A stretch of DNA of 64,000 bases from a virus. Positions within the stretch are counted from its first letter, which is position 1. Every line of letters starts with the position of its first letter. The DNA is taken from positions 19,627-83,626 of the IMG/VR virus record IMGVR_UViG_3300045988_098116; one strand, written 5' to 3'. Both the position numbers and the translations under genes were made by a program. Below are positions 3,017 through 63,799 of the stretch, in pieces. The notes under the pieces were generated by a model, which was not told where the DNA came from, searched no databases, and was given only the letters and a program-made list of their open reading frames with translations.

Positions 3017-3829
3017 ATGAACGACCTCGTGACCATCGGCAACACCCAGTTCACTGCCAAGACGCTGGACGGCAAGCCTGTTCTCACCTTCCATGACATC
3101 GACGCCATCCACCACCGTCCCGAAGGAAGCGCCAGAAAGCGCTTCAACGACAACCGTCAGAGGTTTGTAGAGGGCGAGGACTACATGAAAATTTGCGCGT
3201 CCGAATTTCGGACGCACTTCGATGGACTTTCCAGCAAGGCCACCGAGGACGTATACCTTCTTACCGAGTCCGGCTACCTGATGATCGTCAAGTCCTTCAC
3301 CGACGATTGGGCCTGGGAGGTACAGCGTCGCTTGGTCAAGACCTATTTCCGCGCCAAGGAGCTGGCTGCCGAAAAGCCCAAGCCTATGTCTACCAATGAT
3401 TTGTTTGAGCTGCAGGTAAAAATCAACCGCGAGTACGAGAACAAGATCAATGCGCTGGAGGAACGCGCCGAAAGCGCCGACCGCAAAATCAGCACCATCA
3501 CCGACGTGTTCGCTGCCCCTCCCACCGACGAGGAACGCTGGCGTGACGTGATGAACCGCAAGGTACGCACCATGTGCGAGGAGTACGGTCTGAACTACCA
3601 CACCACCATCGGTGAGATGTACGCCGAGTTGGAGCGCCGTGCCCATGTTAATCTCTCCGTCCGGCAGAAGAACCTCCGTGAACGTATGCGTCTCGGCGGC
3701 GCGAAGTACGCCCAGCGGGAAGCCGTCAGCAAACTGGTGGTCATCTCCCAGGATGCAAAACTTCGTTACATCTACGAGGCTATTGTCCGCGAGAAGGGCG
3801 CCCAACTTGCCGCCTCCCGTATGCACTGA
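3017..3829 (+). CDS. phage antirepressor-like protein (ORF6N/KilA-N type N-terminal domain)
   Basis: N-terminus TIGNTQFTAKTLDGKPVLTFHDIDAIHHRPEGSARKRFNDNRQRFVEGEDY...LLTESGYLMIVKSF is typical of ORF6N/KilA-N DNA-binding domains; RBS AAAGGAG upstream. Confidence 0.7.
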   Translation: MNDLVTIGNTQFTAKTLDGKPVLTFHDIDAIHHRPEGSARKRFNDNRQRFVEGEDYMKICASEFRTHFDGLSSKATEDVYLLTESGYLMIVKSFTDDWAWEVQRRLVKTYFRAKELAAEKPKPMSTNDLFELQVKINREYENKINALEERAESADRKISTITDVFAAPPTDEERWRDVMNRKVRTMCEEYGLNYHTTIGEMYAELERRAHVNLSVRQKNLRERMRLGGAKYAQREAVSKLVVISQDAKLRYIYEAIVREKGAQLAASRMH

Positions 3830-4543: not shown

Positions 4544-4619
4544 GGTGTCGTAGCTCAGCTGGCAGAGCAGCTCATTCGTAATGAGCAGGTCGTGGGTCCG
4601 ATCCCCACCGATACCTCCA
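4544..4619 (+). tRNA. tRNA-Thr (anticodon CGT)
   Basis: Hand-folded cloverleaf. Acceptor GGTGTCG/CGATACC. D arm GCTC-AGCTGGCA-GAGC. Anticodon arm GCTCA-TTCGTAA-TGAGC. T arm GTGGG-TCCGATC-CCCAC (T-loop has C at position 55). Encoded CCA. Confidence 0.85.
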
Positions 4620-4793
4620 ATTCTACGTGGACACCGCGAGTGACGAGCGTATAGCGGAACAGCCGTATGGGTGATGCGAAGTCCTGAAGTAAGCCCCTCA
4701 AGCCTCGATGTTGTAATTGCGCCTGTGATCTGCTGGCAAAAGCGAGGCACGGAAAAGATCTGGCGGCTCGGAAAGACGAGCAACCCCCTCAAT

Positions 4794-4884
4794 GCAGATG
4801 TACCTCAGCCGTGGAAGAGGGTCTGATCGTAGCGTAAAGCGCGAGCTCGGAAAGTCGCAGGTTCGAATCCTGCCGTCTGCACCA
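4794..4884 (+). ncRNA. aberrant tRNA-like element (91 nt) with oversized anticodon arm
   Basis: Good acceptor (GCAGATG/CGTCTGC), D arm (CCTC/GAGG), canonical T arm (GCAGG-TTCGAAT-CCTGC) and CCA. But the anticodon stem TCTGA/TCGGA encloses 20 nt instead of 7. Confidence 0.4.
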
Positions 4885-5210
4885 TAGGCGTGACCTCTTG
4901 CCTCGCAGCCGCACGGAGCGTAAGCCTGCGGAAGTGGTCTTTCCTGTGCGCTGTACGAAAGCGGCAGGACGAAGTAATTTATGTATTGGCTGGCACCGGC
5001 TTTGTAAAGATGAACGGATGCGACCGACGTACCGGCGCAGGGCTGAAAAGTTCCGTGGTTGGTTCGGGTGCCGGCGTGTGCGGCGAAAATCCGAGGCGAT
5101 AACCTATAGATGTGGAAGCGGCGTGGTGGCGGCTGTCTTTGGACAAGGCCGCCGTGTAGGTCAGTAGCCATCCGCACCGGCACCCCGCCAACTGTGTCCC
5201 CGCAAAATTT

Positions 5211-5287
5211 GCAGCGTTAGTGTTCAACGGTCAGCACACCAGCCTTCCAAGCTGGGAGTGGCGGTTCGAATCCGCTACGCTGCTCCA
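5211..5287 (+). tRNA. tRNA-Gly (anticodon TCC)
   Basis: Acceptor GCAGCGT/ACGCTGC. Anticodon arm CCAGC-CTTCCAA-GCTGG. T arm GGCGG-TTCGAAT-CCGCT. Discriminator T, encoded CCA. Confidence 0.85.
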
Positions 5288-5457
5288 TGCCCGCCTGATG
5301 GATGACTTCCCCCGTCAGGAATGAAACCTCCGCATCTGGCAGCGGTGTCGCCGGGTCGAACCAGCCGGTAGCATGATTTGGGCGTGACAGCGAACGAAGG
5401 ACGCCCCACCCCATCGGGGAGGCGGGCATCCCCCAGCCCGTCCTCCCCACTCTCTAC

Positions 5458-5605
5458 GCAGGAGCGCCGTTGGGGCGCTTGCACGGCACACACAGAGATC
5501 TCCTTTCTGCTGCTGTTGTTCGGACACATCAACACCTCCAATGTTCATGTTCTATTTTCCGTGCGCCGGCAAGCCATGCGGGTTCGACTCCCGCCTCCTG
5601 CTCCA
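5458..5605 (+). ncRNA. 148-nt element with tRNA-type ends (perfect acceptor and T arm) but ~75 nt of extra internal sequence
   Basis: GCAGGAG...GCGGG-TTCGACT-CCCGC-CTCCTGC-T-CCA. 5' hairpin GCGCC-GTTGG-GGCGC. Interior does not fold as a standard anticodon or variable arm. Confidence 0.3.
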
Positions 5606-5778
5606 TCGGACGCGATAGGCGTCCGCGGTCCAGATAGGACCTCCTTTATAAATGCTGCGGCTGTAAGAAGCAGCACCGGGTTTTGTTCATTTTCCCCGGC
5701 TCCTGTTGGAATACAGGCAGGCCAAGCGATTTCTCCTTCCGGGCGGCGCGGTCTGGGCAGCCCGCCGCCCAACCCCCT

Positions 5779-5854
5779 GGGGGATTAGCTCAATCGGCAG
5801 AGCAGGCCGCTCATAACGGCCCGGTTCCGGGTTCAAGTCCCCGATCCCCCACCA
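5779..5854 (+). tRNA. tRNA with CAT anticodon (elongator Met or Ile2-type; G1-C72 argues against initiator)
   Basis: Acceptor GGGGGAT/ATCCCCC. D arm GCTC-AATCGGCA-GAGC. Anticodon arm GGCCG-CTCATAA-CGGCC. T arm CCGGG-TTCAAGT-CCCCG (one mismatch). Encoded CCA. Confidence 0.8.
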
Positions 5855-6333: not shown

Positions 6334-7389
6334 ATGATCTACTTCGACAACGCCGCCACCACACCGGTGCTTCCCTGCGCGTGGGAGGCCATGCAAGCCG
6401 CGCCGGAGGCAAACCCATCCAGCAGCCACGCCGCAGGGCGTGAGGCAAAAGCCGCGCTGGAAAACGCCCGCGCCGCCATCGCCCGGTGCCTCAACTGTGC
6501 TCCCTGCGAGGTCTACTTTACCTCCGGCGCCACGGAAAGCTGCAACTGGATGGTCAAATGTCTCCGCATAGAGACAGACAGCATCATCTACAACGACACC
6601 GTTCACCACGCCGTCAGCGGGGGCATCCACGCCTATTCTTCCCCCAATGCGCCCCGCGGAAAGCCCTCCGCCGTCCTTTCTCTCGTCAACAATGAAACCG
6701 GGCAGATATGCGATGTGGACGCTTTCTGCCGCAAAAACCGTCCGCACCGCATCGGCATAGACGCCACCGCCGCCGTAGGCCACATCCCCGTGGACTTCAA
6801 GGCGCTGGGTGCGGACTACATGGCTTTCGGCGGCCACAAGTTCGGTTCCCTCAAGGGCATAGGCGCGTTGATTGTCAAGGAGGGGTGTCCCATCGCCCCC
6901 ATGATCTTCGGCGGCGCACAGGAGCGCGGTATGCGCGGCGGCACGGTCTCCGTCCCCCTTGTCAGCTCTATGGCCGCCGCCCTCACCTGGCGCTCCCTCC
7001 ACATGGAGGAAAACGAGAAAGCTATCCGCGCCGTCGCTCAAGAGCTTATCATTTCCCTTGGTTGCCACCGTGTGGATTTCGACATCAATCTGCCCGGCGG
7101 CAAAAGCAGCAAGGATTGCGCTCCCCACATCCTCTCCATCCGTTTTCCCGGCGTCTACGGCGCTGCCCTCGCCGCCGCCCTCAGCGTAAACGGCGTCATG
7201 GTGTCTACCGGCTCCGCCTGTTCCTCCGGCGACAACGCCGCCTCCGCCAACCTCATGGCCAGCGGCCTTACCGAGCAGGAGGCACTGGAGACCATCCGCT
7301 TCTCCTTCGACTGGTACAACACCACCGCCGAGGCATCCGAGGCCGCCGGCATCATCGCCGATATTGTCCCCACACTCCGTCGCGGCTAA
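6334..7389 (+). CDS. cysteine desulfurase (NifS/IscS-like class V aminotransferase)
   Basis: YFDNAATTP, SGATESCN, PLP-lysine context HKFGSLKGIGALIV, GGAQERGMRGGT, catalytic-Cys loop STGSACSSG. 351 aa, slightly short for the family. Confidence 0.85.
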   Translation: MIYFDNAATTPVLPCAWEAMQAAPEANPSSSHAAGREAKAALENARAAIARCLNCAPCEVYFTSGATESCNWMVKCLRIETDSIIYNDTVHHAVSGGIHAYSSPNAPRGKPSAVLSLVNNETGQICDVDAFCRKNRPHRIGIDATAAVGHIPVDFKALGADYMAFGGHKFGSLKGIGALIVKEGCPIAPMIFGGAQERGMRGGTVSVPLVSSMAAALTWRSLHMEENEKAIRAVAQELIISLGCHRVDFDINLPGGKSSKDCAPHILSIRFPGVYGAALAAALSVNGVMVSTGSACSSGDNAASANLMASGLTEQEALETIRFSFDWYNTTAEASEAAGIIADIVPTLRRG

Positions 7390-7767: not shown

Positions 7768-7941
7768 ATGCTCGTCACCAACGTGATAAAGCGCGAATAC
7801 CCCTTCACCGTCCGCCGCAAGCGGGACGGCGAGATTATGACCATGCTCATCACCGCCGAAAGTGAGTCCGCCGCCCGTCTGCTGCTTCCCGACACCGTGG
7901 AGCTGGTGGGACCACGCGAACCCCACAGGAAGGAGGAATGA
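7768..7941 (+). CDS. hypothetical protein
   Basis: ATG 7768 preceded by GAAGGAGG; 57 aa; ends ...RKEE*. Confidence 0.45.
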   Translation: MLVTNVIKREYPFTVRRKRDGEIMTMLITAESESAARLLLPDTVELVGPREPHRKEE

Positions 7942-7948
7942 CCCCATT

Positions 7949-8950
7949 ATGCCAAGACCCGCCCCTCAAATCATTGGGAAAAAGTTTGGACACCTTACCG
8001 TCGTCAAAAAAGCCGAAGAAAAAGGCCGTACAAGATACCTTTGCCAGTGCGATTGTGGCAACAGCGTCGAGGTCTTTGCATCGAGCATTATAAGTGGTCA
8101 CACGAAAAGCTGTGGCTGTATAAAGCGCGATCAGCCTGCGCATAACTTCTTCGATATTACCGGGATGAAGTTCGGGCACCTCCATGTGCAAGGTGTCGAC
8201 CACAAATTTAACGGGAGGGTTTATTATAAATGTCTGTGCGACTGTGGGAAAGAAATCGTTGTTCTCGGAAACTCTTTGAAGCGTGGTGCTACACACAGTT
8301 GTGGATGCGCACGATCTCAGGCGATTTCAAAAAAAATACGCACACACGGCGAGTCCTCCACACGGTTATTCCGGGTTTGGACCGGCATGAAAAACCGATG
8401 CTATAACAAAAACGAGCCGTCCTACCAGAATTATGGCGCTCGCGGAATCGGTGTATGCTCGGAATGGTTAAACAGCTATGAAGCGTTCCGAGACTGGGCT
8501 TTAGCAAACGGCTACGACGAAAATGCGCCCTACGGGGAATGTACGCTTGACCGAATTGACACAAACGGAGATTACTCTCCGGGGAATTGCCGTTGGGCAG
8601 ATCTTACAGTTCAGGCCAACAATAAGACTACCAGCCACTTTATTGACTTTCGCGGTGAGCGCCATACCATAGCAGAGTGGAGCAAAATTTTGGGCATCCC
8701 AAAGCATATTATAAACACTGGGCTCCGTGCCGGTAAGCCTTTTTCGGAAATCATTGAGCTACCACATATTAGGAGAACCTATATAACACTTGGTGGAAAG
8801 ACTCTCTCTATTTCGGCATGGGAACGCGAAATGAATCTTGCGCAAAAAACTATTTCGCGGCGATTAAAGCAAGGGTGGAGCGCCGAGGATGCAATATTAA
8901 CACCCTCAGCCAAAAAGAAAAAGGAGTGTGCAAAAAATGGGCAGAAGTAG
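7949..8950 (+). CDS. DNA-binding protein with two tandem Zn-ribbon modules and a degenerate HNH/AP2-associated region
   Basis: Two repeats of G-KFGHL-V...C-CDCG...SCGC. Then RVWTGMKNRCYN...YGARGI..C.EW and LDRIDTNGDYSPGNCRWA..QANN, a pattern common in phage HNH/AP2-type proteins. Visibly A/T-richer than flanks. Confidence 0.55.
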   Translation: MPRPAPQIIGKKFGHLTVVKKAEEKGRTRYLCQCDCGNSVEVFASSIISGHTKSCGCIKRDQPAHNFFDITGMKFGHLHVQGVDHKFNGRVYYKCLCDCGKEIVVLGNSLKRGATHSCGCARSQAISKKIRTHGESSTRLFRVWTGMKNRCYNKNEPSYQNYGARGIGVCSEWLNSYEAFRDWALANGYDENAPYGECTLDRIDTNGDYSPGNCRWADLTVQANNKTTSHFIDFRGERHTIAEWSKILGIPKHIINTGLRAGKPFSEIIELPHIRRTYITLGGKTLSISAWEREMNLAQKTISRRLKQGWSAEDAILTPSAKKKKECAKNGQK

Positions 8951-9980
8951 CCGTGCAGAAATGAAATTGTGCCAAGCAACAGATTCCTACATCAAAAACT
9001 GCGCCGCCACCGGCGCTTCTCCCCGCACCGTCGAGGCGTACACCGCCACGCTGGAGAACTTCGTCAACTTCTTCATCGAGTCCAAAGAGAATTACGCCGA
9101 CCCCTCCTACGCCACCATCCTTTTGTGGCGCGACAACCTGATCGACAGCGGCTGCAGCAACTACACCGTCGCCCTCTACGTCAACCGGCTCCGCACCTTT
9201 TTCGACTACGCCAGCGACCCCGAGTGCGGCGGCTGGTACGCCAACAATCCTGTCTCCCGTCGCCTGACGCCCGACACCCGCAAGACCGCCCGTCGTCCCT
9301 ACGATGTGCTTCTCACCGACCAGCAGGTGATGAAGCTTTGGCGCAACGACAAGCCCGCCACCGCCAAGGCGAAAACATGGCCCCGGAATTACGCCATCGT
9401 CATCATGCTTCTAACCACCGAGCTCCGCAACGCCGAGCTTCTGGACCTCACCCCGGCGGATCTCCACTGGGAGGACGGCGAACTCTCCGTCGAGAGCGGC
9501 AAGGGCAGTAAGTTCCGCCGCATCGAATTTCCCGACATCGCCCAGTCCGCCGTCCGTATCTATCTGGCCAGCGGCATCCGCCCGAAGGATCTTCCCGACA
9601 CAGCGCCCCTGTTCGGCAATACCGCGCCAAAGGGTTCCTTCGGTCCCCGCACCGGCGATGAGAACCGCGAGTGGCAGCGCGGCTCTCGTCAGTGGCTCTC
9701 CACCCTTGTGGAATCCCACGTCAGGGCAGTCACCGGCGTTCCCGACATCCGCAGCCACGACCTGCGCCATGTAGGCGCCCGCATCGACCTCAACGCCGGT
9801 ATGAAGCAGGAGGAGCTTCAGTCCAAGCTGGGTCACACCAATCCCAACGTTACCCAGCGCTATTCAGGCCGTCTGCTTTCCCGCACCGGCAAGCGCTCCG
9901 CCGCCCTCGTTCTCGAAGCCCGTGAGCGTCAGGCGGACATCAATGCCAACATTTTGGCCGGGAGGGTACAAAATGCGTAA
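8937..9980 (+). CDS. int: tyrosine recombinase/integrase
   Basis: ATG 8937 ten nt after AAGGAG. SAM-like core-binding N-terminus (SPRTVEAYTATLENF). Catalytic region RNAELLDL...SHDLRHVGA...LGHTNPNVTQRYSG (R..H-R-H..Y). Confidence 0.85.
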   Translation: MGRSSRAEMKLCQATDSYIKNCAATGASPRTVEAYTATLENFVNFFIESKENYADPSYATILLWRDNLIDSGCSNYTVALYVNRLRTFFDYASDPECGGWYANNPVSRRLTPDTRKTARRPYDVLLTDQQVMKLWRNDKPATAKAKTWPRNYAIVIMLLTTELRNAELLDLTPADLHWEDGELSVESGKGSKFRRIEFPDIAQSAVRIYLASGIRPKDLPDTAPLFGNTAPKGSFGPRTGDENREWQRGSRQWLSTLVESHVRAVTGVPDIRSHDLRHVGARIDLNAGMKQEELQSKLGHTNPNVTQRYSGRLLSRTGKRSAALVLEARERQADINANILAGRVQNA

Positions 9981-10289: not shown

Positions 10290-11564
10290 TCACTTCACGA
10301 TCTCCCACGTGCCGCTTTTCCCGTCCGCGCTCCGCGTCACCTTCACGGTGTACGTTTCGGTCACGGCCGGCTGTTCCGGTGTCTCCGGCTGTTCCGGCTC
10401 CTGCGGCTTTTCCGGCTCCACATATTCCAGCCCGCAGAACTCGCACAGCGCCTTGCAGTCCGCCACAGCGCAATCCTCCATGTGCTCGTGGAACCACGCC
10501 GCGTCCTCCGGGTTGTCGTGGTACACGTGCTCCTGGTACACGGCGTAAGCGTTGGTGTCGTCCAGCTCGTGCAGGTCGCTCCGCGTCGCGGTCCGGCAGC
10601 CGTGGGGGTAGATGGCCTTGCGGTACTTCACCATCAGCTCTGCCAGCTTCTTCCCGTTGGCGCTGCTGGGGTGGTACATGGACAAAAATCCCTTTACCGT
10701 GCCGTGCCCGGTGGGGCCGTTGGTGCTGCCGTTGGTGTGGGACACATAGTGCACCTTTGCGCCCCACTCGTTGCTCTCCTTGATGGCGCGGTACATATAG
10801 TCCGGGCCGTACTCGTCGCTCATGGGCGTCCGGCGGGGACCGCGCATGATGTCAAAGCCGCACCGCTCCAGCATGGGCTGCAAAATATCCAGAAACTCAT
10901 TGTTTTCGAGAGTTTCAAAACATTGCTGGCCATCGGGACGCTTATAGCAGCACTGGTTGGCCTTGTGGTACGCCGGGGACAGATAGATCTTCGGCTTCTC
11001 CGCCGGCGCGTCCTCGTCGCTCTCCTGATAATCCGGGTAGCCGAAGGTGTACGAGGACTTCACGCTGGCGTACTCCTTCTCGTACACGCCGCCGCCGTTG
11101 ACCACCACGCCGCTCTGCGGGCTGGTGTTGCCCTCTATGGTGCGGAAGCCCTTGCCCACGATCTCCGTCACAATGCCCGTGTGATCGTCGCCGAAGAATA
11201 CCTGTGCGCCCACCTTCGGCGTAGTGCCCAGCTGCCCCGCAGCCTTGAAGTACCGCTTCAGGTAGTACACGCCCGCGCCCAGACTGTCATCCGGCAGGTT
11301 CTGCAGCCGCTTCGCCTCTGCTACGCCGAACGCCTGCACGTTCACCCACGCCACGAACGTGGTGCACCACGGGTATCCCTGCTTTTTCCCGTTGTAGAAA
11401 TGGGGGATGGCGTCAATGTCCCGTGCGTACTTCGTGAAGTTCTTGTCCCCTGCGTTGGCGGTCTTGCTGTCGAGATAGTGTGTCTCCGGCGTGTCGTTGG
11501 AAGCCTTCTCAAGATAGCCCAGCTCCTCCCGGGCTATCTTGATGACCTTACTGGCGCCGTTCAT
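10290..11564 (-). CDS. endolysin: N-terminal CHAP domain plus Amidase_3-type N-acetylmuramoyl-L-alanine amidase
   Basis: CHAP Cys/His context (GYPWCTTFVAW...DDHTGIV). Central IYLSPAYHKANQ...VSHTNG...YQEHVYHDN pattern of MurNAc-LAA. Last gene of the lysis cassette. Confidence 0.85.
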   Translation of the reverse strand: MNGASKVIKIAREELGYLEKASNDTPETHYLDSKTANAGDKNFTKYARDIDAIPHFYNGKKQGYPWCTTFVAWVNVQAFGVAEAKRLQNLPDDSLGAGVYYLKRYFKAAGQLGTTPKVGAQVFFGDDHTGIVTEIVGKGFRTIEGNTSPQSGVVVNGGGVYEKEYASVKSSYTFGYPDYQESDEDAPAEKPKIYLSPAYHKANQCCYKRPDGQQCFETLENNEFLDILQPMLERCGFDIMRGPRRTPMSDEYGPDYMYRAIKESNEWGAKVHYVSHTNGSTNGPTGHGTVKGFLSMYHPSSANGKKLAELMVKYRKAIYPHGCRTATRSDLHELDDTNAYAVYQEHVYHDNPEDAAWFHEHMEDCAVADCKALCEFCGLEYVEPEKPQEPEQPETPEQPAVTETYTVKVTRSADGKSGTWEIVK

Positions 11565-11782
11565 GCTGCTTCCCCCAGGTCCTTCTCCTTCTTATAGCTG
11601 GCGCTGGAAATGCCCAGCACAGCACCGAGGAAAACGGTGATGCAGGAGATGGTGCTCACGATCTGCTCCGCATAGGGCCAGCCCCAGATACCGGCCAGAC
11701 CGGAGTACAGCGCCGCAATAGCGGGCAGCACGATGATAACGCACCACTTGATGATGTCATACATACGATTGCTCAGCTTCAT
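11561..11782 (-). CDS. holin (Dp-1-like, two TM helices)
   Basis: 73 aa; IIVLPAIAALYSGLAGIWGWPYAEQIVSTISCITVFLGAVLGIS resembles the Dp-1 holin family pattern; overlaps endolysin start. Confidence 0.7.
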   Translation of the reverse strand: MKLSNRMYDIIKWCVIIVLPAIAALYSGLAGIWGWPYAEQIVSTISCITVFLGAVLGISSASYKKEKDLGEAA

Positions 11783-12212: not shown

Positions 12213-12338
12213 ATGCCCGAGTATTTCACCCTGTTCAACGCCGTCACCGACGCCATTGCCCAGCTTGAAAAGGCCGTTGCCGCACTTAAACAGGCACAGA
12301 TCCGTGCCGAGGAAGCCTACATCCAGCGGGGGGAGTAA
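12213..12338 (+). CDS. 41-aa coiled-coil micro-ORF on the opposite strand
   Basis: ATG 12213 preceded by AAAGGAGG; MPEYFTLFNAVTDAIAQLEKAVAALKQAQIRAEEAYIQRGE. Confidence 0.35.
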   Translation: MPEYFTLFNAVTDAIAQLEKAVAALKQAQIRAEEAYIQRGE

Positions 12339-12350
12339 TCTCCCCGCCCT

Positions 12351-12530: not shown

Positions 12531-13365
12531 TTACGCTTCCTTGTGCAGGCGGATGCACACGATGCCCGAGCCGCCGGCAGCACCTTTTGAGCGCCCTTGG
12601 GGCGAATCAGAAGCAGTACCGCCCCCTCCACCAGAGCCCGTATTTTCCTGACCAGAGGTTGCCTCTCCAGCGATACTTCCACCATTTCCTCCCCCGCCTT
12701 CGCCCCCAACACCTGCGGTACCTTGGCCGTTCCTATCGTACGTAGAGCCACCGCCACCTCCGCCGGCATAAAGCTTACCGGTAGTCTCGCCAAACTCTCG
12801 TGTAGTAGTGCCTTGTCCAGAACCGCCTGTGGAATAATTGTTATATGTGTTTCCTCCGCTGGAGCCGTCGGAGCCACCATTAGCTGCATTTTTTGTAGCC
12901 GTCGTGTTAGTTGTTCCACCAGCTCCTCCACCAGAGCCACCAGGGCTGCCAATGTAATATGAACCTGAATTCCTACTGCCGCCTTCAACAGAGCTGCCAA
13001 AAGCAGACGTAGAGCCTCCGGGGTTTGATGGGTCAGTATAAGAAGCACTTTCTGCACCACCGCTTCCAATGATTATTTGATATCCCTGTTTCGCCATTGG
13101 GATTATATTGGTTAGCGTTTTTGTAAACCCGCTACTGCCACCAGCTCCACCATTGCCGCCGTTGGACGCTGCTCTCCCACTGGCCCCTCCCCCAACAAGG
13201 AATACATCAATAGGTGTTTCCTTCTTGAACGTAATCACACCACTGGTCAGCAGCTCTACCACACCATCCTCAAGCCGTTCGTTGTACGTTCCGGTGTACT
13301 CAAACTCTAACCGTTTAGCAGTACCCCCCCCCCGCAATTAACGCTTTGCCGATAATCATGCTCAT
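12531..13365 (-). pseudogene. glycine-rich fibre-like paralog P3; start codon and body are in different frames because of a G10 tract
   Basis: ATG 13365 (GGAGG RBS, ATGA-coupled to upstream gene) reads MSMIIGKALIAGGGYC* and stops at 13315-13317. The body (TAKRLEFEYTGTYNE...GGSGIVCIRLHKEA) is in the +1 frame. 9 or 12 G would give one ORF colinear with P1/P2. Confidence 0.7.
13324..13333 (-). repeat. homopolymer G10 (C10 on + strand)
   Basis: Counted directly in the sequence. Confidence 0.95.
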
Positions 13366-13628
13366 CCGATAACCTCCATATCCGCCTGATAGATGGTTTC
13401 CACAGCCTCGCCCAGCTGCTGCGTCAGGCTGTCTATCTCCTTGTTGGCCTCCTCCAGTGCCGTCAGAACCTCTTTGCCGTCACGGTAGAACTTCCCCTCC
13501 GTGTACGTGTCGCCCATGCCCACAGGCCGGTCGCCTGTGTACACCGCCGAGGGAAAGAACTGCTCGTTCCGCTTGTCCATTTCGATGATGTTCGTAACAA
13601 CACCGTTTTCCACTAATGCGTATCTCAC
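13362..13628 (-). CDS. hypothetical protein (possible fibre assembly factor)
   Basis: 88-aa ORF between glycine-rich paralogs, translationally coupled to P3. Confidence 0.5.
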   Translation of the reverse strand: MRYALVENGVVTNIIEMDKRNEQFFPSAVYTGDRPVGMGDTYTEGKFYRDGKEVLTALEEANKEIDSLTQQLGEAVETIYQADMEVIG

Positions 13629-13641
13629 TTAATCACGCTCC

Positions 13642-14763
13642 TTAATCCGAAATCTTGGTGGCGTTTGCGGTGAACCATGCGTAGAACTCCGGAGAAACTA
13701 CTTGATAGCGATTCCAGAATTTTATGGTTTTTGCTGTTGATTGCCTCCACATGTTATGTGTAAAGTCATATACCAGTACATAATTTGTCGACAAATCACC
13801 GGAGTTATGCCCAAAGCACAGATCGGTTGTGCCAGAGAATGCTCTTGCGCCCATCACGGCATAAAGGCTGGAACCGGCATAGACAAATGTCCCGTCATAA
13901 TCGAAGTTCTCTGTAAACAAAGCGCTCGGCATGGTAAGTGTGTCATTAAACCTCCACGTTCCACTCAGCACGTTCTCAGTGGGGTCGTCTTGGTGCAGGC
14001 GGATACACACGATACCGCTGCCGCCAGCAGTCCCTTGACCGCCGGTGCCTCCACCACCAGCAAACCCTTTCCCGCCGCCGCCACCGCCACCGGTATTAGC
14101 TGTAGCGTCAGTTGTGGAATTCCCGTTTGCACCGCCCCCTTCACCGCCAGCTCCCGCAGTTCCATAGTTTCCGTATATTCCTTGACCGCCGCCACCTCCA
14201 CCGGCATACAGTTTTCCGGTTGCTTCGCCAAACTCTCTTGTGGTGGCGCCTTGCCCTTTCCCAGGGTTTCCGGTTGTTGCGCTACCGACATTGCCACCAT
14301 CAGCTCCGTTTGACCCTCCATCACCAGCGTTTGTTTGCCCGCTTGCAGAAACGCCGCCTTTACCGCCGCCAGAGCCGCCGTTAGCAACAGTTCCACCTGT
14401 AACTGTGTAACCAAAAGCCGAAGTCTCCCCGCCGGAGTTGCCACCACCGGTGCCGCCCGCGCCAATAACAACTTGGTATGCCACCCCTTTTCGCAACAAA
14501 GCGTTTACAATAGTTCTTGTGCATCCACCGCTACCTCCGGCTCCGCCGTTGCTGGATGTTCCAATAGACACACCACCGGCACCACCGCCAACCATGAATA
14601 CATCCACATACGTATCCTTTTTCATCGTAAGGATACCGGTTTCCAAAAACTCCACTACACCGTCTGCGGTACGCTCATTGAATGTACCGCCCGTGTAGGT
14701 GAAATCCAGCCGATTGGCAATTCCGCCGCCCCCTGCTGTCACCGCTCTGCCTGTAATTGCCAT
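13642..14763 (-). CDS. glycine-rich fibre-like paralog P2 with extra ~110-aa C-terminal domain
   Basis: GGAGG RBS. Shares N-terminus (..AGGGGIANRLDFTYTG...VVEFLETGILT), core TTREFGEATGKLYAGGGGGG and GGSGIVCIRLH with P1/P3, then a non-Gly domain (WRFNDTLT...FYAWFTANATKISD). Confidence 0.75.
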   Translation of the reverse strand: MAITGRAVTAGGGGIANRLDFTYTGGTFNERTADGVVEFLETGILTMKKDTYVDVFMVGGGAGGVSIGTSSNGGAGGSGGCTRTIVNALLRKGVAYQVVIGAGGTGGGNSGGETSAFGYTVTGGTVANGGSGGGKGGVSASGQTNAGDGGSNGADGGNVGSATTGNPGKGQGATTREFGEATGKLYAGGGGGGQGIYGNYGTAGAGGEGGGANGNSTTDATANTGGGGGGGKGFAGGGGTGGQGTAGGSGIVCIRLHQDDPTENVLSGTWRFNDTLTMPSALFTENFDYDGTFVYAGSSLYAVMGARAFSGTTDLCFGHNSGDLSTNYVLVYDFTHNMWRQSTAKTIKFWNRYQVVSPEFYAWFTANATKISD

Positions 14764-14802: not shown

Positions 14803-15645
14803 TTATTCTTTGTGTACGCGCATACAGATGATGCCCGAGCCGCCGCTTCCGCCCGAGGTACTGTCGCTGGGAGAATAGGCGTAATTAAAACCACCGCCTC
14901 CGCCTCCACCAGTATTAGGAGTTCCGTCCCCAGCAGAACCACGGAATTTTGCACCATTGCCACCGCCGCCTGCGCCACCGGCTCCGGAGTCTGCATTATA
15001 TCCGTCGTCGTATGTAGCGCCACCGCCGCCGCCGCCGGAATACAATTTCCCGGTAGTCTCGCCAAACTCCCTTGTAGTTGTGCTCTGTCCGGTTCCGCCT
15101 GCGCCACCGCCATTGGCACCGGAAGCACCATCAGAACCACCGCCCCCGCCAGGTGCACGACTGGCACTATTCGCATAGCTGCCTCCACCACCGCCAGAGC
15201 CGCCGTTGCCACCTTCCCTGGTACTGGTTGATGCGTGTTTTCCACCCTCCGATGCTGTAAAAAACCCATCGGATCCAGTGATAGATGTTGTCCCTCCGTC
15301 TGTGGGGCTCGCTCCAGTTTTTGTCGACCCCCCTGTGCCACCAGCCCCAATAACTATGTTATAAGTGCCTTTTCGAAGTAGGGTATTCAAAACCGTCTTT
15401 GTGTAGCCTCCACCACCCCCACCGTTACATAAAGCTGATAGTTGGCCGTTTTGTGCGCCTCCACCGCCGCCGCCCACAAGAAACAGGTCCGTGTACACGT
15501 CCTTCTTGATGGTCAGCACGCCGGTAGACAAAAACTCCACAACGTTGTCCTCTGCGCGGCGGATGTACTGCCCGGAATACTCGAAATCAATATCCGGTGC
15601 TACACCACCCCCCCCCGCAATTTGCGATTTACCGATAATAACCAT
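14803..15645 (-). CDS. glycine-rich fibre-like paralog P1
   Basis: AAGGAGG RBS; MVIIGKSQIAGGGGVAPDIDFEYSG...TTREFGETTGKLYSGGGGGG...GGSGIICMRVHKE; contains an in-frame G9 tract at codons 10-13. Confidence 0.75.
   Translation of the reverse strand: MVIIGKSQIAGGGGVAPDIDFEYSGQYIRRAEDNVVEFLSTGVLTIKKDVYTDLFLVGGGGGGAQNGQLSALCNGGGGGGYTKTVLNTLLRKGTYNIVIGAGGTGGSTKTGASPTDGGTTSITGSDGFFTASEGGKHASTSTREGGNGGSGGGGGSYANSASRAPGGGGGSDGASGANGGGAGGTGQSTTTREFGETTGKLYSGGGGGGATYDDGYNADSGAGGAGGGGNGAKFRGSAGDGTPNTGGGGGGGFNYAYSPSDSTSGGSGGSGIICMRVHKE
15608..15616 (-). repeat. homopolymer G9 (C9 on + strand) inside the P1 5' end
   Basis: Counted directly in the sequence. Confidence 0.95.
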
Positions 15646-16070: not shown

Positions 16071-18149
16071 TCAATTTTTTGCTACGGTCCACAGGGCGTC
16101 GCCCTGCCGTATCAGTATCTGTGCGCCCTCCGCGCTCCCGGTCTCAGCCCACGGCACCGCGCAGATCAGCGCCTGCTGCCGCGTGTTGTCCTGCGTCTCG
16201 CAGGTGATCTCCGCGTTGACAAATACCCGCAGCACCTCGCCCTTTCGGTTTTTCAGGAATAAGGTGTTCTGCGTCAGCGCCAAAGCAAACAGCGCGTCCC
16301 GCTTCGCCAGCGTGTCGCTGTACTCCGCATTGGCGCCCACCTCGCCGATATAGCCGCTCAGCTCGCCGCTTTGGTACAGCTGCGGTACCATCTGTACCGT
16401 GGGGTATCGGGTGAAGTTTTCCAGCAGCGTCGGTCGGTTGTTGTTGCTCACCGTCCCGCTCTCCACGTTCAGGCTGAACCGGAATAGCTCCTCCACCCGG
16501 TATACGTTGTCGCCGTCCTCCGCGCAGGAGAGTATCGTCCAGTCCCACAAGCACACCGTCACCGGCTGGCTGGGCAGCGCCGTGGTCACAAAGGATCTCT
16601 CCCCCACGCCGAATACGTAGTAGGTGTACGTTCCCTGCGAGGCCGCCGCGCAGTCGATCACGCTGCGCTCCGCGTACCCTACGTCCGCCACGTGCACCAG
16701 CGACGCTGCGCCCTCCTCTCTGCGGTATACGGCCCAGCCCGTCAGCGGCTCCTCCGCCACGATGTTGCCGCCCCGCAGGTCTGTGGCGAAGTCCGCCAGC
16801 AGCAGCGTCCTGCCGCCGAACTCCGGTGTGTACCCCGCTGCGCTCATCAGTGCCGTCACCACCGTGTCCGTCAACTCGCCCTCCTCTATCCACAGGTAGT
16901 CGCACACCTGTGCGCCAACCAGCTTCACGTTCACCACGGTCATGTCCGCCATCACCGCGTCAGCCATGTATTTCAGCACCGAGAATTGGCTGGCCCGGGG
17001 GAATAACCGCACCGACGGTTCCAGACTCTCCGCCGGGAATAGTCCACGCTCATACCGCCGCCGCACATACAGTTTTCCGCCCGTCAGCGCCACCGTCAGC
17101 TCGTCCTCCGGGGCAAAGGCAGCGTCCACCCGGCCTATCTCCGCGCCGCCCTGCATAGCCCGCACCGCCGTTGTGCTCACCGTCACCGTCAGCGACTTTC
17201 CGTCCGCGCCGGTCAGGTTGAATAGCGTCGCCGGCAGCGCCTTGACCGTTCCCTTCCATACGATGCTTATGGGCGTCGTCAGCGCCATCGCTTCGCCCGT
17301 CACCGTGTCCCATGTCACCGTGGATCCGGTGCTCAGGTTCAGCTCCCCGTTTCGGATGGTGTATTCGCCCTCCGCCGTGCCCGGTATGTCGTAGGCGCCC
17401 GGCCACGACACCAGCACGCCGCTTTGCTTCCGCTTTACGCACGTCACCACCGCGCCGGTATAATTGCTGGCGCTGTATTGCACCGCGAACTGTACCCAGC
17501 CCGTGTCTGCCACCACGCCGTTGCTGGTCTCCACCCGGCACCGCACGGCGTATTCCTGCCCGGTGAATAAGCCGTCGTAGTAAAACGCCAGCTGTGCCGT
17601 CGCCACGTTGCCCGTGTCGTACAGCACGTCCTCCGTGTCCATTGCCGGTGCAATCTGCCACCGCGCCCAAATAATGGGGTCGCCCTGCGCCTGCGAATAG
17701 CTGGCCGTCCACGTCATCTCCTTCGCCGCCACCGGCTTCGTAAAGTCGTTGATGGTCAGCACCGGTGCGCTCCGGCACACGAATACCGATGCGCTCTGCT
17801 GCGTCACGCTGTCCGCGTCTGTCCACCACTGGGTGATGAGCAGCTTGTAGCTGTTTCCGTTGGTGATTCCCGCCGCAGCCAGCGCCGCCGCCGTGATCGT
17901 GTAGCTGAAAAACACCACATCGCCCTTGGCGTTTCGCCCGTAAAAGGGGCAGTTGTCCGTCCGTTTTCCCGAGTCGTACAGCTGTGCGCTCTCCGCCGTG
18001 TTGGCCAGAATTTTTATCTCAAACGCCGTCATGGCGTTCTGTCCGTCCACCTGCCAGGTCACGGTCATGTTTTGGCTTGCATCCACCGTCCCGTTGCCCA
18101 GCGCTCCCAGCGTGGAGGGCGTGATATTTGTAGGCATAAAAAGTGCCAT
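16071..18149 (-). CDS. large tail-tip/baseplate protein
   Basis: 692-aa ORF with strong RBS (GGAAGGAGGG); second large gene after the tape measure; beta-rich repeats. Confidence 0.6.
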   Translation of the reverse strand: MALFMPTNITPSTLGALGNGTVDASQNMTVTWQVDGQNAMTAFEIKILANTAESAQLYDSGKRTDNCPFYGRNAKGDVVFFSYTITAAALAAAGITNGNSYKLLITQWWTDADSVTQQSASVFVCRSAPVLTINDFTKPVAAKEMTWTASYSQAQGDPIIWARWQIAPAMDTEDVLYDTGNVATAQLAFYYDGLFTGQEYAVRCRVETSNGVVADTGWVQFAVQYSASNYTGAVVTCVKRKQSGVLVSWPGAYDIPGTAEGEYTIRNGELNLSTGSTVTWDTVTGEAMALTTPISIVWKGTVKALPATLFNLTGADGKSLTVTVSTTAVRAMQGGAEIGRVDAAFAPEDELTVALTGGKLYVRRRYERGLFPAESLEPSVRLFPRASQFSVLKYMADAVMADMTVVNVKLVGAQVCDYLWIEEGELTDTVVTALMSAAGYTPEFGGRTLLLADFATDLRGGNIVAEEPLTGWAVYRREEGAASLVHVADVGYAERSVIDCAAASQGTYTYYVFGVGERSFVTTALPSQPVTVCLWDWTILSCAEDGDNVYRVEELFRFSLNVESGTVSNNNRPTLLENFTRYPTVQMVPQLYQSGELSGYIGEVGANAEYSDTLAKRDALFALALTQNTLFLKNRKGEVLRVFVNAEITCETQDNTRQQALICAVPWAETGSAEGAQILIRQGDALWTVAKN

Positions 18150-19461: not shown

Positions 19462-19665
19462 TCAGCTGCGCTTACGCTTCTTCCTGTCCTCCGCCGCCGT
19501 CAGCGCGTCGCACTCCTCGTCCGTGGCCGCCCTGATCTTCCGTATATCCGGGTTTCCCTTGCGGTACTGGCTTTCACGGGTGATGTAGTACCGTCCCGTG
19601 ATGCCCGTTATCGGTATTTCTCTGCCGCTTTTCATCACCAGGATGTGCCGTGTCTTTTTCGCCAT
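19462..19665 (-). CDS. hypothetical protein
   Basis: 67-aa ORF from internal ATG (MAKKTRHILVMKSG...). Confidence 0.4.
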   Translation of the reverse strand: MAKKTRHILVMKSGREIPITGITGRYYITRESQYRKGNPDIRKIRAATDEECDALTAAEDRKKRKRS

Positions 19666-35310: not shown

Positions 35311-35386
35311 TGGCGGAAACGGCAGGGTTTGAACCTGCGCCCCTCTGATTAACAGTCAGATGCTCTGCCAACTGAGCTACATTTCC
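35311..35386 (-). tRNA. tRNA-Asn (anticodon GTT)
   Basis: Reverse complement folds as GGAAATG-TA-GCTC..GAGC-A-TCTGA-CTGTTAA-TCAGA-GGGGC-GCAGG-TTCAAAC-CCTGC-CGTTTCC-G-CCA. Confidence 0.85.
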
Positions 35387-35446
35387 GTATGGGGCTTGCG
35401 CCCCCATAAACTCCCTTTCGGGCGAAAACGATCCAACGTTTTCATC

Positions 35447-35521
35447 TGGCACGGACGCGAGGACTCGAACCTTGAACTGCGGTTTTGGAGACCGCCGTTT
35501 TCCCGGTTAAACTAAATCCGC
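35447..35521 (-). tRNA. tRNA-Trp (anticodon CCA), weak acceptor stem
   Basis: Anticodon arm GCGGT-CTCCAAA-ACCGC. D arm GTTT/AAAC. T arm CAAGG-TTCGAGT-CCTCG (one mismatch). Acceptor GCGGATT/CGTCCGT has 4 WC pairs, 2 GU pairs and 1 mismatch. Confidence 0.65.
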
Positions 35522-62680: not shown

Positions 62681-63799
62681 ATGTCAACGAAATGCAAGTC
62701 CTGTAAGCGCGAAGTCCCCGACAACGCCACGTTCTGCCCTTGGTGCGGCCAGAAGCAGGTGCGGGAGCGCAAAAAGGACGGCGTTATCAAGGTGCCGGAG
62801 CCAAAGCAGCTTCCATCCGGCAGCTGGCGCATATATCTCCGTGCCGAGCAGCAGTCTGTCACCGAACCTACCAAGGATCGCTGCATCGCAAAGGCCAAAG
62901 CCATCCGCGCCGGCTTTGTGGAGCAGCAGAAAAAAGCAAAAGACCAGCCGCTTCTGCTCTCTGAAGCCATTGAAAATTATATCACGCGCCGTACCCTTCT
63001 CTCTCCCAACACTATCCGCGGCTACCGCATCTATCAGAAAAACCGCTTCAAGTCTTGCCAAGGGGTCAACATACGCGAGCCGGTGGATTGGCAGTCGTAT
63101 ATAAACGAGGAGGCCGCGCTCTGCGCCCCAAAAACGCTGAAAAATGCCTGGGGGTTTATTAAATCCGTCTTAGAGGAAAACGGCATCGCCGCTCCAAAAG
63201 TAACGCTTCCAAAGCTCCCTGTTTCCGAGCATAAGTGGCTCACGCCGGAGCAGATCATCGTATTCTGCAAAGCCATCGAGGGCAAGTCCTTCGAGAAGGA
63301 AGCGCTTTTCGCCCTCCACAGTCTGCGCCGCGGAGAGCTGCTGGCCCTAAAATGGGACGACATAGATTTTAAGTCCGACTCCTTCCGTGTTCATGCCGTC
63401 ATCGCGCAGAACGAAAAGAACGAGTATGTGGAGAAGATAACACCCAAAACCAAAAAGTCCAATCGTGTCGTCCCCTTTATGATCCCCCGCCTCCGCCAGC
63501 TCCTCAAGGATGAAAATGGTCCCAAGGGCAAGCGTGTGTCGTACCAGCCGCCAAACGGGCTCTGGCGCAAGATCAACGATGTCTGCGAAGCAAACGGACT
63601 TCCCAAGGTGGGGGTACATGGTCTGCGCCATAGTTTTGCATCCCTTGCCTACAGTCTCGGTTTCAAGGAAGAGGAATGTATGCGTATCGGCGGCTGGTCA
63701 GATTACAAGGTCATGCACGAAATATATACTCACCTCGCCGCCCGCGACTTAAATGCCCGCGTCAAGGAGATGGAGAATTTTTACAAAGAAAATTTGTGA
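62681..63799 (+). CDS. int: tyrosine integrase with N-terminal Zn-ribbon
   Basis: CKSCKREVPDNATFCPWCG; arm-binding-like SGSWRIYLR; catalytic RRGELLAL...HGLRHSFAS...GGWSDYKVMHEIYTH. Confidence 0.9.
   Translation: MSTKCKSCKREVPDNATFCPWCGQKQVRERKKDGVIKVPEPKQLPSGSWRIYLRAEQQSVTEPTKDRCIAKAKAIRAGFVEQQKKAKDQPLLLSEAIENYITRRTLLSPNTIRGYRIYQKNRFKSCQGVNIREPVDWQSYINEEAALCAPKTLKNAWGFIKSVLEENGIAAPKVTLPKLPVSEHKWLTPEQIIVFCKAIEGKSFEKEALFALHSLRRGELLALKWDDIDFKSDSFRVHAVIAQNEKNEYVEKITPKTKKSNRVVPFMIPRLRQLLKDENGPKGKRVSYQPPNGLWRKINDVCEANGLPKVGVHGLRHSFASLAYSLGFKEEECMRIGGWSDYKVMHEIYTHLAARDLNARVKEMENFYKENL

Follow-up and report, generated by a model that had tools for sequence, protein, structure and literature searches.

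Two polyG tracts as candidate slipped-strand switches of Gly_rich_2 fibre-type genes in a siphovirus-like gut phage

The 64,000 nt stretch of viral DNA analysed here (IMG/VR record IMGVR_UViG_3300045988_098116, positions 19,627 to 83,626; hereafter the window) contains a cassette of three paralogous genes, P1, P2 and P3, that code for fibre-type proteins of the glycine-rich Gly_rich_2 family. In P1 and P3, an uninterrupted run of G residues lies between the start codon and the body of the gene. The run is nine nt long in P1, which is in frame (ON), and ten nt long in P3, which is out of frame (OFF). The comparison of these tracts with those of related phages suggests that they are probably slipped-strand contingency loci, that is, two hypermutable polyG tracts that switch two of the three Gly_rich_2 genes of a siphovirus-like gut phage.

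PolyG tracts at the 5′ ends of P3 and P1

The three genes and the elements described in this section lie on the minus strand. The ATG start codon of P3 (13363–13365) is preceded, 7 nt upstream, by a GGAGG ribosome-binding site (13373–13377). It overlaps, as ATGA, the TGA stop codon (13364–13362) of an 88-aa open reading frame (ORF; 13362–13628; phrog_14370, function unknown) to which P3 is translationally coupled. From this ATG the translation reads MSMIIGKALIAGGGYC and then stops: after the peptide MSMIIGKALIAGGG there are exactly ten consecutive G (13333–13324), a length of the 3n+1 class that occupies codons 11–14, and the frame is closed after 16 codons by a TAA at 13315–13317. The body of P3, with an intact Gly_rich_2 domain, lies in the +1 frame (12531–13323; 263 codons plus the stop codon at 12533–12531), within an open frame spanning 12531–13337. 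It opens with GGT ACT GCT AAA and reads TAKRLEFEYTG.... A single ORF is regained with either nine or 12 G. With G9 the junction reads AGGG-TAK, one glycine fewer than in P1 and P2, while with G12 it is exactly colinear with both. A preliminary description of the locus, made from the sequence alone, had pointed out the ribosome-binding site, the start codon and the ATGA coupling, the G10 run with its downstream TAA, the displacement of the body to the +1 frame and the intact ORF obtained with G9 or G12, all of which held on inspection of the minus strand. The N-termini it gave for P1 (15645–14803) and P2 (14763–13642) were also correct.

P1 (14803–15645) codes for a 280-aa Gly_rich_2 protein (PF21722, E = 1.9e-21) and is in frame. 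Its G9 tract (15608–15616; codons 10–13), with a length of the 3n class, appears to be a sister switch to that of P3. P2 (13642–14763; 373 aa) codes for the same AGGGG motif as P1, although with the codons GGG GGC GGC GGA (codons 11–14; 14722–14733), an interrupted and stable tract that would make P2 the constitutive member of the cassette; P2-type genes were in frame in every relative. Apart from the G10 of P3 and the G9 of P1, no G/C run in the 64 kb (58% GC) exceeds 7 nt, and these two are the longest homopolymers of the window. Membership of the Gly_rich_2 family was well above the gathering cut-off of 24.3 bits for P1 (77.6), for P2 (51) and for P3 once its frame was repaired (67.4 bits; E = 2e-18).

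P2 differs from its paralogs in a C-terminal extension of about 110 aa (residues ∼265–373; 13642–13970, minus strand), WRFNDTL...FYAWFTANATKISD, that has no family match. Some P3-like relatives (P0004, P0005) have a C-terminal extension of the same type, which suggests a swappable distal domain. An exact-protein look-up of the P2 of the window found no record.

Tract length and reading frame in related phages

The loci gathered for comparison comprised 69 from IMG/VR, 10 contigs that encode the exact 88-aa upstream protein (present in 114 collection blocks) and 64 loci that a degenerate DNA pattern had retrieved from metagenomes. About 140 related contigs of gut phages contributed 296 paralog N-termini to the pooled census, with a possible overlap between the IMG/VR and ENA contig sets. 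A second census, based on regular expressions, gave some P1-type lengths that were off by one and, in a test for a C-terminal motif, spurious ‘exceptions’; only body lengths and frame states were used from it. When 50,697 annotated phage records were searched by megablast and tblastn, only two unannotated, uncultured contigs from human faeces matched, and no cultured relative was found. A scan of GTDB genomes detected only distant Gly_rich_2 genes devoid of the tract, in Oscillospiraceae, Christensenellaceae, Bacilli and Muribaculaceae metagenome-assembled genomes.

A protein search with the G9-repaired P3 identified an intact 277-aa protein, P0001, with 98% identity; the contig that encodes it, L001, has G9 at this position and also carries a further paralog in which a G7 tract runs into a stop codon. 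In the faecal contig MT835723, a P1-type gene has G10 and is out of frame. Among the IMG/VR loci, the P1-type tracts ranged from G6 to G14, G9 being the commonest (24 genes ON, 34 OFF), and the P3-type tracts from G6 to G12, with G10 the commonest (22 of 49; 16 genes ON, 33 OFF). The metagenome set gave 17 ON and 33 OFF for P1-type genes, and 14 ON and 21 OFF for P3-type genes, 10 of these 35 having G10. Over both sets, lengths extended from G6 to G17; it was the P1-type tracts, mostly out of frame, that reached G17, while the counterparts of the P3 tract spanned G6 to G14.

In the pooled census, pure tracts of at least 7 G had lengths of 7–14, with a mode at 9–10; 76 were ON and 133 OFF (36% ON), a proportion that did not differ from one third (p = 0.38). 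By contrast, all 87 tracts that were interrupted or no longer than 6 nt were ON (Fisher p = 1.4e-29 against the pure class). Dereplication left 67 of 176 tracts ON. In the relatives, either wrong frame reaches a stop codon in 2–7 codons, as read from their sequences. The states of P1 and P3 in the same phage (19 pairs OFF/OFF, 10 ON/OFF, six OFF/ON and seven ON/ON, P1 given first) were those expected if the two genes were independent. The comparison of tract length among relatives that the preliminary description had proposed as a check thus revealed hypervariability across about 200 homologous tracts, about one third of them in frame.

Some relatives carry a fourth type of paralog (MSNIVGK...). 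In two of them (L001, at 3785–3791, and L051) it has a pure G7 or G8 tract and is out of frame. Four others (L005, L035, L043 and L060) have an in-frame gene with an interrupted tract, as if this copy had been derived from the same switch and ‘locked ON’.

Throughout the family, the tract is a specific hot-spot for insertions and deletions (indels). Over 6,267 nt, the only differences between L103 and L105, two contigs of 164 kb that come from sibling ENA assemblies (ERZ27253824 and ERZ27253827), lie in the tracts: L103 has G12 in both (both genes ON), and L105 has G13 and G11 (both OFF). In another pair (L049 and L050), three substitutions were found in 8.8 kb, and the only internal indels were of one G in each tract. 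For pairs with no more than 1% mismatch and indel-free flanks of 900 nt, tract length differed in 8 of 14 P3-type and in 8 of 11 P1-type comparisons, while in the second census 8 of 27 haplotypes with identical flanks showed more than one tract length. In 173 kb of alignments with at least 99% identity, 12 of the 31 indel events fell in G/C runs of at least 8 nt, and none in the approximately 90 runs of 6–7 nt.

OFF states were present in consensus sequences assembled at 150–884x coverage. The contig at the upper end of this range, L170 (ERZ1034962 NODE-42, 71 kb), has G10 in both its P1-type and P3-type tracts, so that both genes are OFF; in that sample, the phage could apparently persist or propagate without either variable fibre.

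The window seems to be a contig from a metagenome, long G runs are prone to error, and the relative with 98% identity shows G9 with an intact protein. The G10 of P3 might therefore be a sequencing or assembly artefact, the true phage having G9 or G12 and an intact P3; this had been one of the options of the preliminary description. Such an explanation is very unlikely. G10 was the commonest P3-type state in both the IMG/VR and the metagenome set, the OFF consensus was obtained at high coverage, the span of G6 to G17 far exceeds errors of one nt in either direction, and the flanks contained no other indels. In addition, the ENA contig L102 (ERZ28570454 / SAMN02333961) is identical to the window over 6,267 nt, G9 and G10 included, but the two may not be independent, as they could go back to a single data set. 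A homopolymer error confined to this one contig is conceivable, but as a general explanation it does not account for the family-wide pattern.

The homopolymer itself seems to be maintained, as a highly atypical coding sequence, since GGG represents only 11% of the 7,679 Gly codons of the gene bodies, and since 102 bodies, with 620 Gly runs of at least three residues, contained no more than three G runs that reached 7 nt. The pure N-terminal tract, in turn, is nearly universal in P1- and P3-type genes. Sequence comparison further showed the bodies to be under purifying selection, with a functional appearance even when OFF: the ratio of non-synonymous to synonymous substitution rates (dN/dS) of the P3 body of the window was 0.23–0.31 relative to ON and OFF relatives alike, and 106 of 109 complete OFF copies had a full-length body (at least 259 codons). 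The view of the preliminary description that the P3 body is undecayed agrees with these data, with its 98% identity to the intact P0001 and with a dN/dS of 0.28–0.31 relative to its two closest relatives.

These observations also bear on the possibility that P3 is an ordinary pseudogene, recently inactivated and now decaying, next to a tract that has no role. P3 is indeed out of frame, and both genes are OFF in abundant phages. However, the OFF bodies are preserved and show the dN/dS values given above, frameshifts occur at the tract only and in none of the interrupted copies, and about 200 genes have retained the tract in spite of their codon usage. Pseudogene decay was accordingly rejected as extremely improbable.

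The first ∼75 nt of the P1- and P3-type genes (13290–13365 and 15570–15645 in the window, minus strand) are nearly identical in DNA sequence across phages whose bodies have synonymous divergences (dS) above 1.2, as seen in the homologous 5′ ends of L001–L174. This arrangement suggests that the conserved 5′ segment is an anchor module, or a recombination joint for the swapping of fibre bodies.

Proposed switch and alternative routes to expression

The loci combine several of the features that characterise contingency loci: a homopolymer in the 5′ part of the coding region, the toggling of a reading frame, tract-specific polymorphism in near-identical genomes, and the preservation of both the repeat and the OFF ORFs. 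In the proposed mechanism, slipped-strand mispairing during DNA replication would add or remove G residues, so that the body of ∼265 codons would come to be read, or not, in the frame of the start codon and its 10-residue N-terminal peptide. Lengths of the 3n class (G6, G9, G12) would allow the synthesis of a full-length protein with 2–4 glycines in a disordered N-terminal linker, while lengths 3n+1 and 3n+2 would lead to termination within a few codons. P1 and P3 would switch independently, and P2 would always be made because its tract is interrupted, allowing up to four fibre combinations in the phage population; the window would represent a state with P1 ON (G9) and P3 OFF (G10). Judging from assembled genomes, switching would take place at a high rate within populations.

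Slipped-strand ON/OFF switching had been the first option of the preliminary description, and it is supported by the variation from G7 to G14, the proportion of about one third in frame, the absence of frameshifts in the 87 interrupted tracts and the conservation of the bodies. The proposal of the P3 tract as a switch candidate therefore stands, but P3 is not unique, since P1 carries a second, independent candidate switch that had been overlooked.

The structure predicted by AlphaFold for P0001 with 68 homologues (predicted local distance difference test, 89.5; predicted template-modelling score, 0.88) was confident except for residues 1–15, which were disordered. The tract would thus encode a flexible linker in which two, three or four glycines could be tolerated. 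The best matches to this model in the PDB were the Bxb1 tail-tip chains (9d93) and the fibre gp24 of cyanophage Pam3 (7ypx/7yfw), followed by the glycine-rich domain of ALK/LTK. The predicted fold is a TNF-like β-sandwich with a polyglycine lattice (Foldseek probability 1.0; E = 1.6e-5 to 9e-4), and many phage proteins annotated as ‘glycine-rich domain-containing’ matched the model in a viral structure library. A profile search of PDB sequences gave no match. The predicted fold, together with the position of the genes in the tail module, supports the assignment of P1, P2 and P3 as fibre or receptor-binding-type proteins. P1 and P3 would then be accessory receptor-binding fibres of the virion, and their switching would serve a bet-hedging strategy in host range or adsorption.

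Several considerations weigh against this interpretation. All the evidence compares the consensus sequences of assemblies, rather than heterogeneity inside one population. The fraction of genes that are ON is indistinguishable from one third, and in the contig with 884x coverage both genes are OFF, so that selection for the ON state is not apparent; this fits dispensable genes, or an expression that does not depend on frame. The near-identity of the 5′ 75 nt in genes whose bodies have dS above 1.2 means that the ‘conservation’ of the tract could stem in part from a recent recombinational spread of the 5′ module, and not from long-term selection for mutability. Finally, the location in the virion and the binding of a receptor are deduced from gene order and a predicted fold, with modest template-modelling scores relative to solved fibres (0.35–0.45).

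Expression independent of frame could occur by stuttering of the RNA polymerase, or by +1/−2 slippage of the ribosome, in which case the tract would act as an attenuator and its length in the DNA would be nearly neutral. Other systems are known in which slippage at a homopolymer rescues expression, the ON fraction equals the neutral one third, and abundant contigs have both genes ‘OFF’ with bodies that are conserved nonetheless. Even so, this explanation is unlikely: tract length is not conserved, unlike that of programmed sites, the avoidance of the tract by P2 would be left unexplained, and efficient transcriptional slippage is known on A/T rather than G runs. Programmed slippage in particular, another option of the preliminary description, received no support and was rejected, since lengths vary from 6 to 17 over all three frames and no stimulatory RNA structure was predicted. 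The minimum free energy of the downstream RNA had a z-score of +0.37 relative to shuffled sequences, with no structure beyond those of the controls, and Rfam gave no match except tRNAs. Low-level slippage rescue is possible, and would also yield a frame-blind one-third ON.

A further alternative is that the tract is a three-state switch. When its length is 3n+1, the TTG at 13335–13337 (minus strand) is in frame with the body and might act as a weak alternative start (MRGGGTAK...), yielding a P3 protein that lacks its first 10 residues; G10 would then be a ‘short form’ rather than an OFF state. This TTG gives access to the body frame at G10, is conserved in 87 of 95 P3-type genes and was chosen as the start of the relative P0008 by the gene caller, and G10 is the modal P3-type state. 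However, the TTG has no recognisable Shine-Dalgarno sequence upstream and lies inside the short ORF read from the strong ATG. It is kept in only 45 of 114 P1-type genes, having been lost through synonymous ATA or ATC codons in 67, and tract lengths are unimodal around 9–10 in both gene types, with no excess of 3n+1. The use of TTG as the main route was judged unlikely because of the missing Shine-Dalgarno sequence and its poor conservation in P1-type genes, and a three-state switch at P3 is given very little credence. Scarcely more credible is its extension to a device of a widespread gut-phage clade, in which 3n would specify an anchored fibre, 3n+1 a TTG-initiated protein without the 10-residue docking peptide, and 3n+2 no product. 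If true, two such paralogs and a constitutive third would generate up to nine virion types, a bet-hedging strategy against the variable surfaces of gut Bacillota, and the 3n+1 product could be a free or differently attached fibre.

Genomic context and comparison with known systems

The fibre cassette is preceded by a TP901-family tape-measure gene and baseplate-like genes, and followed by holin and endolysin genes, a position usual for fibres and receptor-binding proteins. Upstream of the cassette, a gene on the minus strand (16071–18149) codes for a 692-aa tail/baseplate-like protein with weak similarity to known proteins. A Dp-1-type holin (11561–11782) and a CHAP/amidase_3 endolysin (10290–11564), also on the minus strand, close the late operon. 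Directly downstream of a 51-aa ORF that follows P3, a G+C-rich hairpin, GCGGGGGGAGTAATCTCCCCGC (12326–12347), was scored as terminator-like on the plus strand in a consensus scan; it may form a boundary between the fibre cassette and the lysis genes.

Tyrosine recombinase genes lie on both sides of the element. Two overlapping ORFs on the plus strand (7862–8950 and 8928–9980) are recombinase-like by eye, and an ORF near the other end (62681–63799, plus strand) is named ‘integrase’ by its sources and belongs to a 313-member cluster. ARAGORN detected a tRNA cluster near 4544–5854 (plus strand), with tRNAs for Thr (CGT), Gly (TCC) and Met, and an 88-nt Rfam tRNA match at 4794–4881 had no ARAGORN call. 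A tRNA-Asn (GTT) and a tRNA-Trp (CCA) were found at 35311–35521 (minus strand), in the phage region among minus-strand ORFs. The cluster at the left adjoins a gene named ‘cysteine desulfurase’ (6334–7389, plus strand). The relatives of this gene are on contigs of ∼70–90 kb, and the only source name among them that bears an organism is Caudoviricetes; the left flank, with its tRNAs, may for this reason be phage DNA. The preliminary description had treated the element as a lysogen; this is not established, since a portion of the window may consist of phage DNA and not of host chromosome. With three fibre genes of ∼30% glycine nearby, a tRNA-Gly (UCC) carried by the phage would be suggestive.

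The closest parallel is found in Campylobacter Fletchervirus phages, in which hypermutable polyG tracts are present in receptor-binding protein genes (Sorensen et al. 2021, Cell Rep 35:109214, as cited in PMC12823448, bioRxiv 10.1101/2025.10.21.683753). There too, several runs of ∼7–11 G per genome occur in host-recognition genes, and ON/OFF frameshifts give rise to subpopulations with different sets of fibres. Fletchervirus phages, however, are virulent myoviruses of a Gram-negative host devoid of mismatch repair, whereas the present element is an integrase-carrying, siphovirus-like gut phage with lysis genes of the Gram-positive type. Here, moreover, the tract is fixed at codons 10–14, in a disordered N-terminal linker, and one paralog is constitutive. 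Heterogeneity and phenotype were established by experiment in Fletchervirus, while the present loci are known from assembled sequences. A tblastn search of the 50,697 phage records with P0001 found no Campylobacter phage, and thus no homology to the Fletchervirus receptor-binding proteins; at the sequence level, the resemblance is one of mechanism and not of protein family.

Phase variation by polyG tracts is also known from the contingency loci of bacteria, in surface genes of Campylobacter, Neisseria and Haemophilus. These share with the phage loci an early homopolymer, frameshifts (reversible in bacteria and putatively so in the phage), polymorphism in near-identical genomes, retention of the tract against codon bias and intact OFF ORFs. 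They differ in that they act on cell-surface structures, while the locus described here is viral, would act on virion parts and is known from assembled sequences. Homopolymer slippage in genes of phages T2 and T4 has been proposed as a form of bet-hedging (Gomez, Barrick & Waters, bioRxiv 10.1101/2025.10.21.683753). The T2/T4 tracts, of at least 6 nt and mostly A/T, occur in many gene classes and are under-represented in tail-fibre genes (bioRxiv 10.1101/2025.10.21.683753). In the gut phages, by contrast, it is in fibre paralogs specifically that two long G tracts are conserved.

Other phages diversify their host range by means of diversity-generating retroelements, as with Mtd of Bordetella phage BPP-1, or of invertible fibre segments, as with the G segment of Mu and its invertase Gin. 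The outcome, a diversification of receptor-binding proteins within the phage population, would be similar, but those phages reach it by retro-mutagenesis or site-specific inversion instead of slippage. A search that was not exhaustive tied no reverse transcriptase or invertase to the cassette. A programmed frameshift in a phage tail gene is known for the G/GT tail assembly chaperone of lambda. It resembles the present case in the change of frame at a slippery run in a tail-module gene; the heptamer and the frame relationship are fixed in lambda, while the polyG tracts take lengths of all three frame classes.

As to the proteins, Pam3 gp24 and the Bxb1 tail tip share with the P0001 model the predicted β-sandwich with a polyglycine lattice, and the Pam3 domains recognise a receptor. 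There is no sequence-level match to any PDB chain, however, the template-modelling scores reach only 0.32–0.45, and in place of an N-terminal helical shaft the proteins described here have a disordered N-terminus of 15 residues. The analogy with gp38 of Salmonella phage S16 is one drawn in PMC9608196; gp38 was not among the Foldseek matches obtained here.

In the literature, no prior description of a polyG switch was found for gut phages or for Gly_rich_2 (PF21722) proteins. To our knowledge, Campylobacter phages are so far the only ones for which experiments have demonstrated polyG phase variation of receptor-binding proteins. The fixed N-terminal position of the tract, the combination of two candidate switches with a constitutive paralog, the wide distribution in human-gut metagenomes and the clean population signature are notable traits of the present case, in which uncultured phages of the human gut that form a common lineage share a strongly conserved polyG logic. 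If confirmed, it would provide a concrete and easily testable case of bet-hedging by gut phages, and would explain why gene callers fragment these fibre genes. Fibre genes of the gut virome that appear to be ‘pseudogenised’ may then be OFF-phase alleles, which would bear on the prediction of host range and on the engineering of gut phages.

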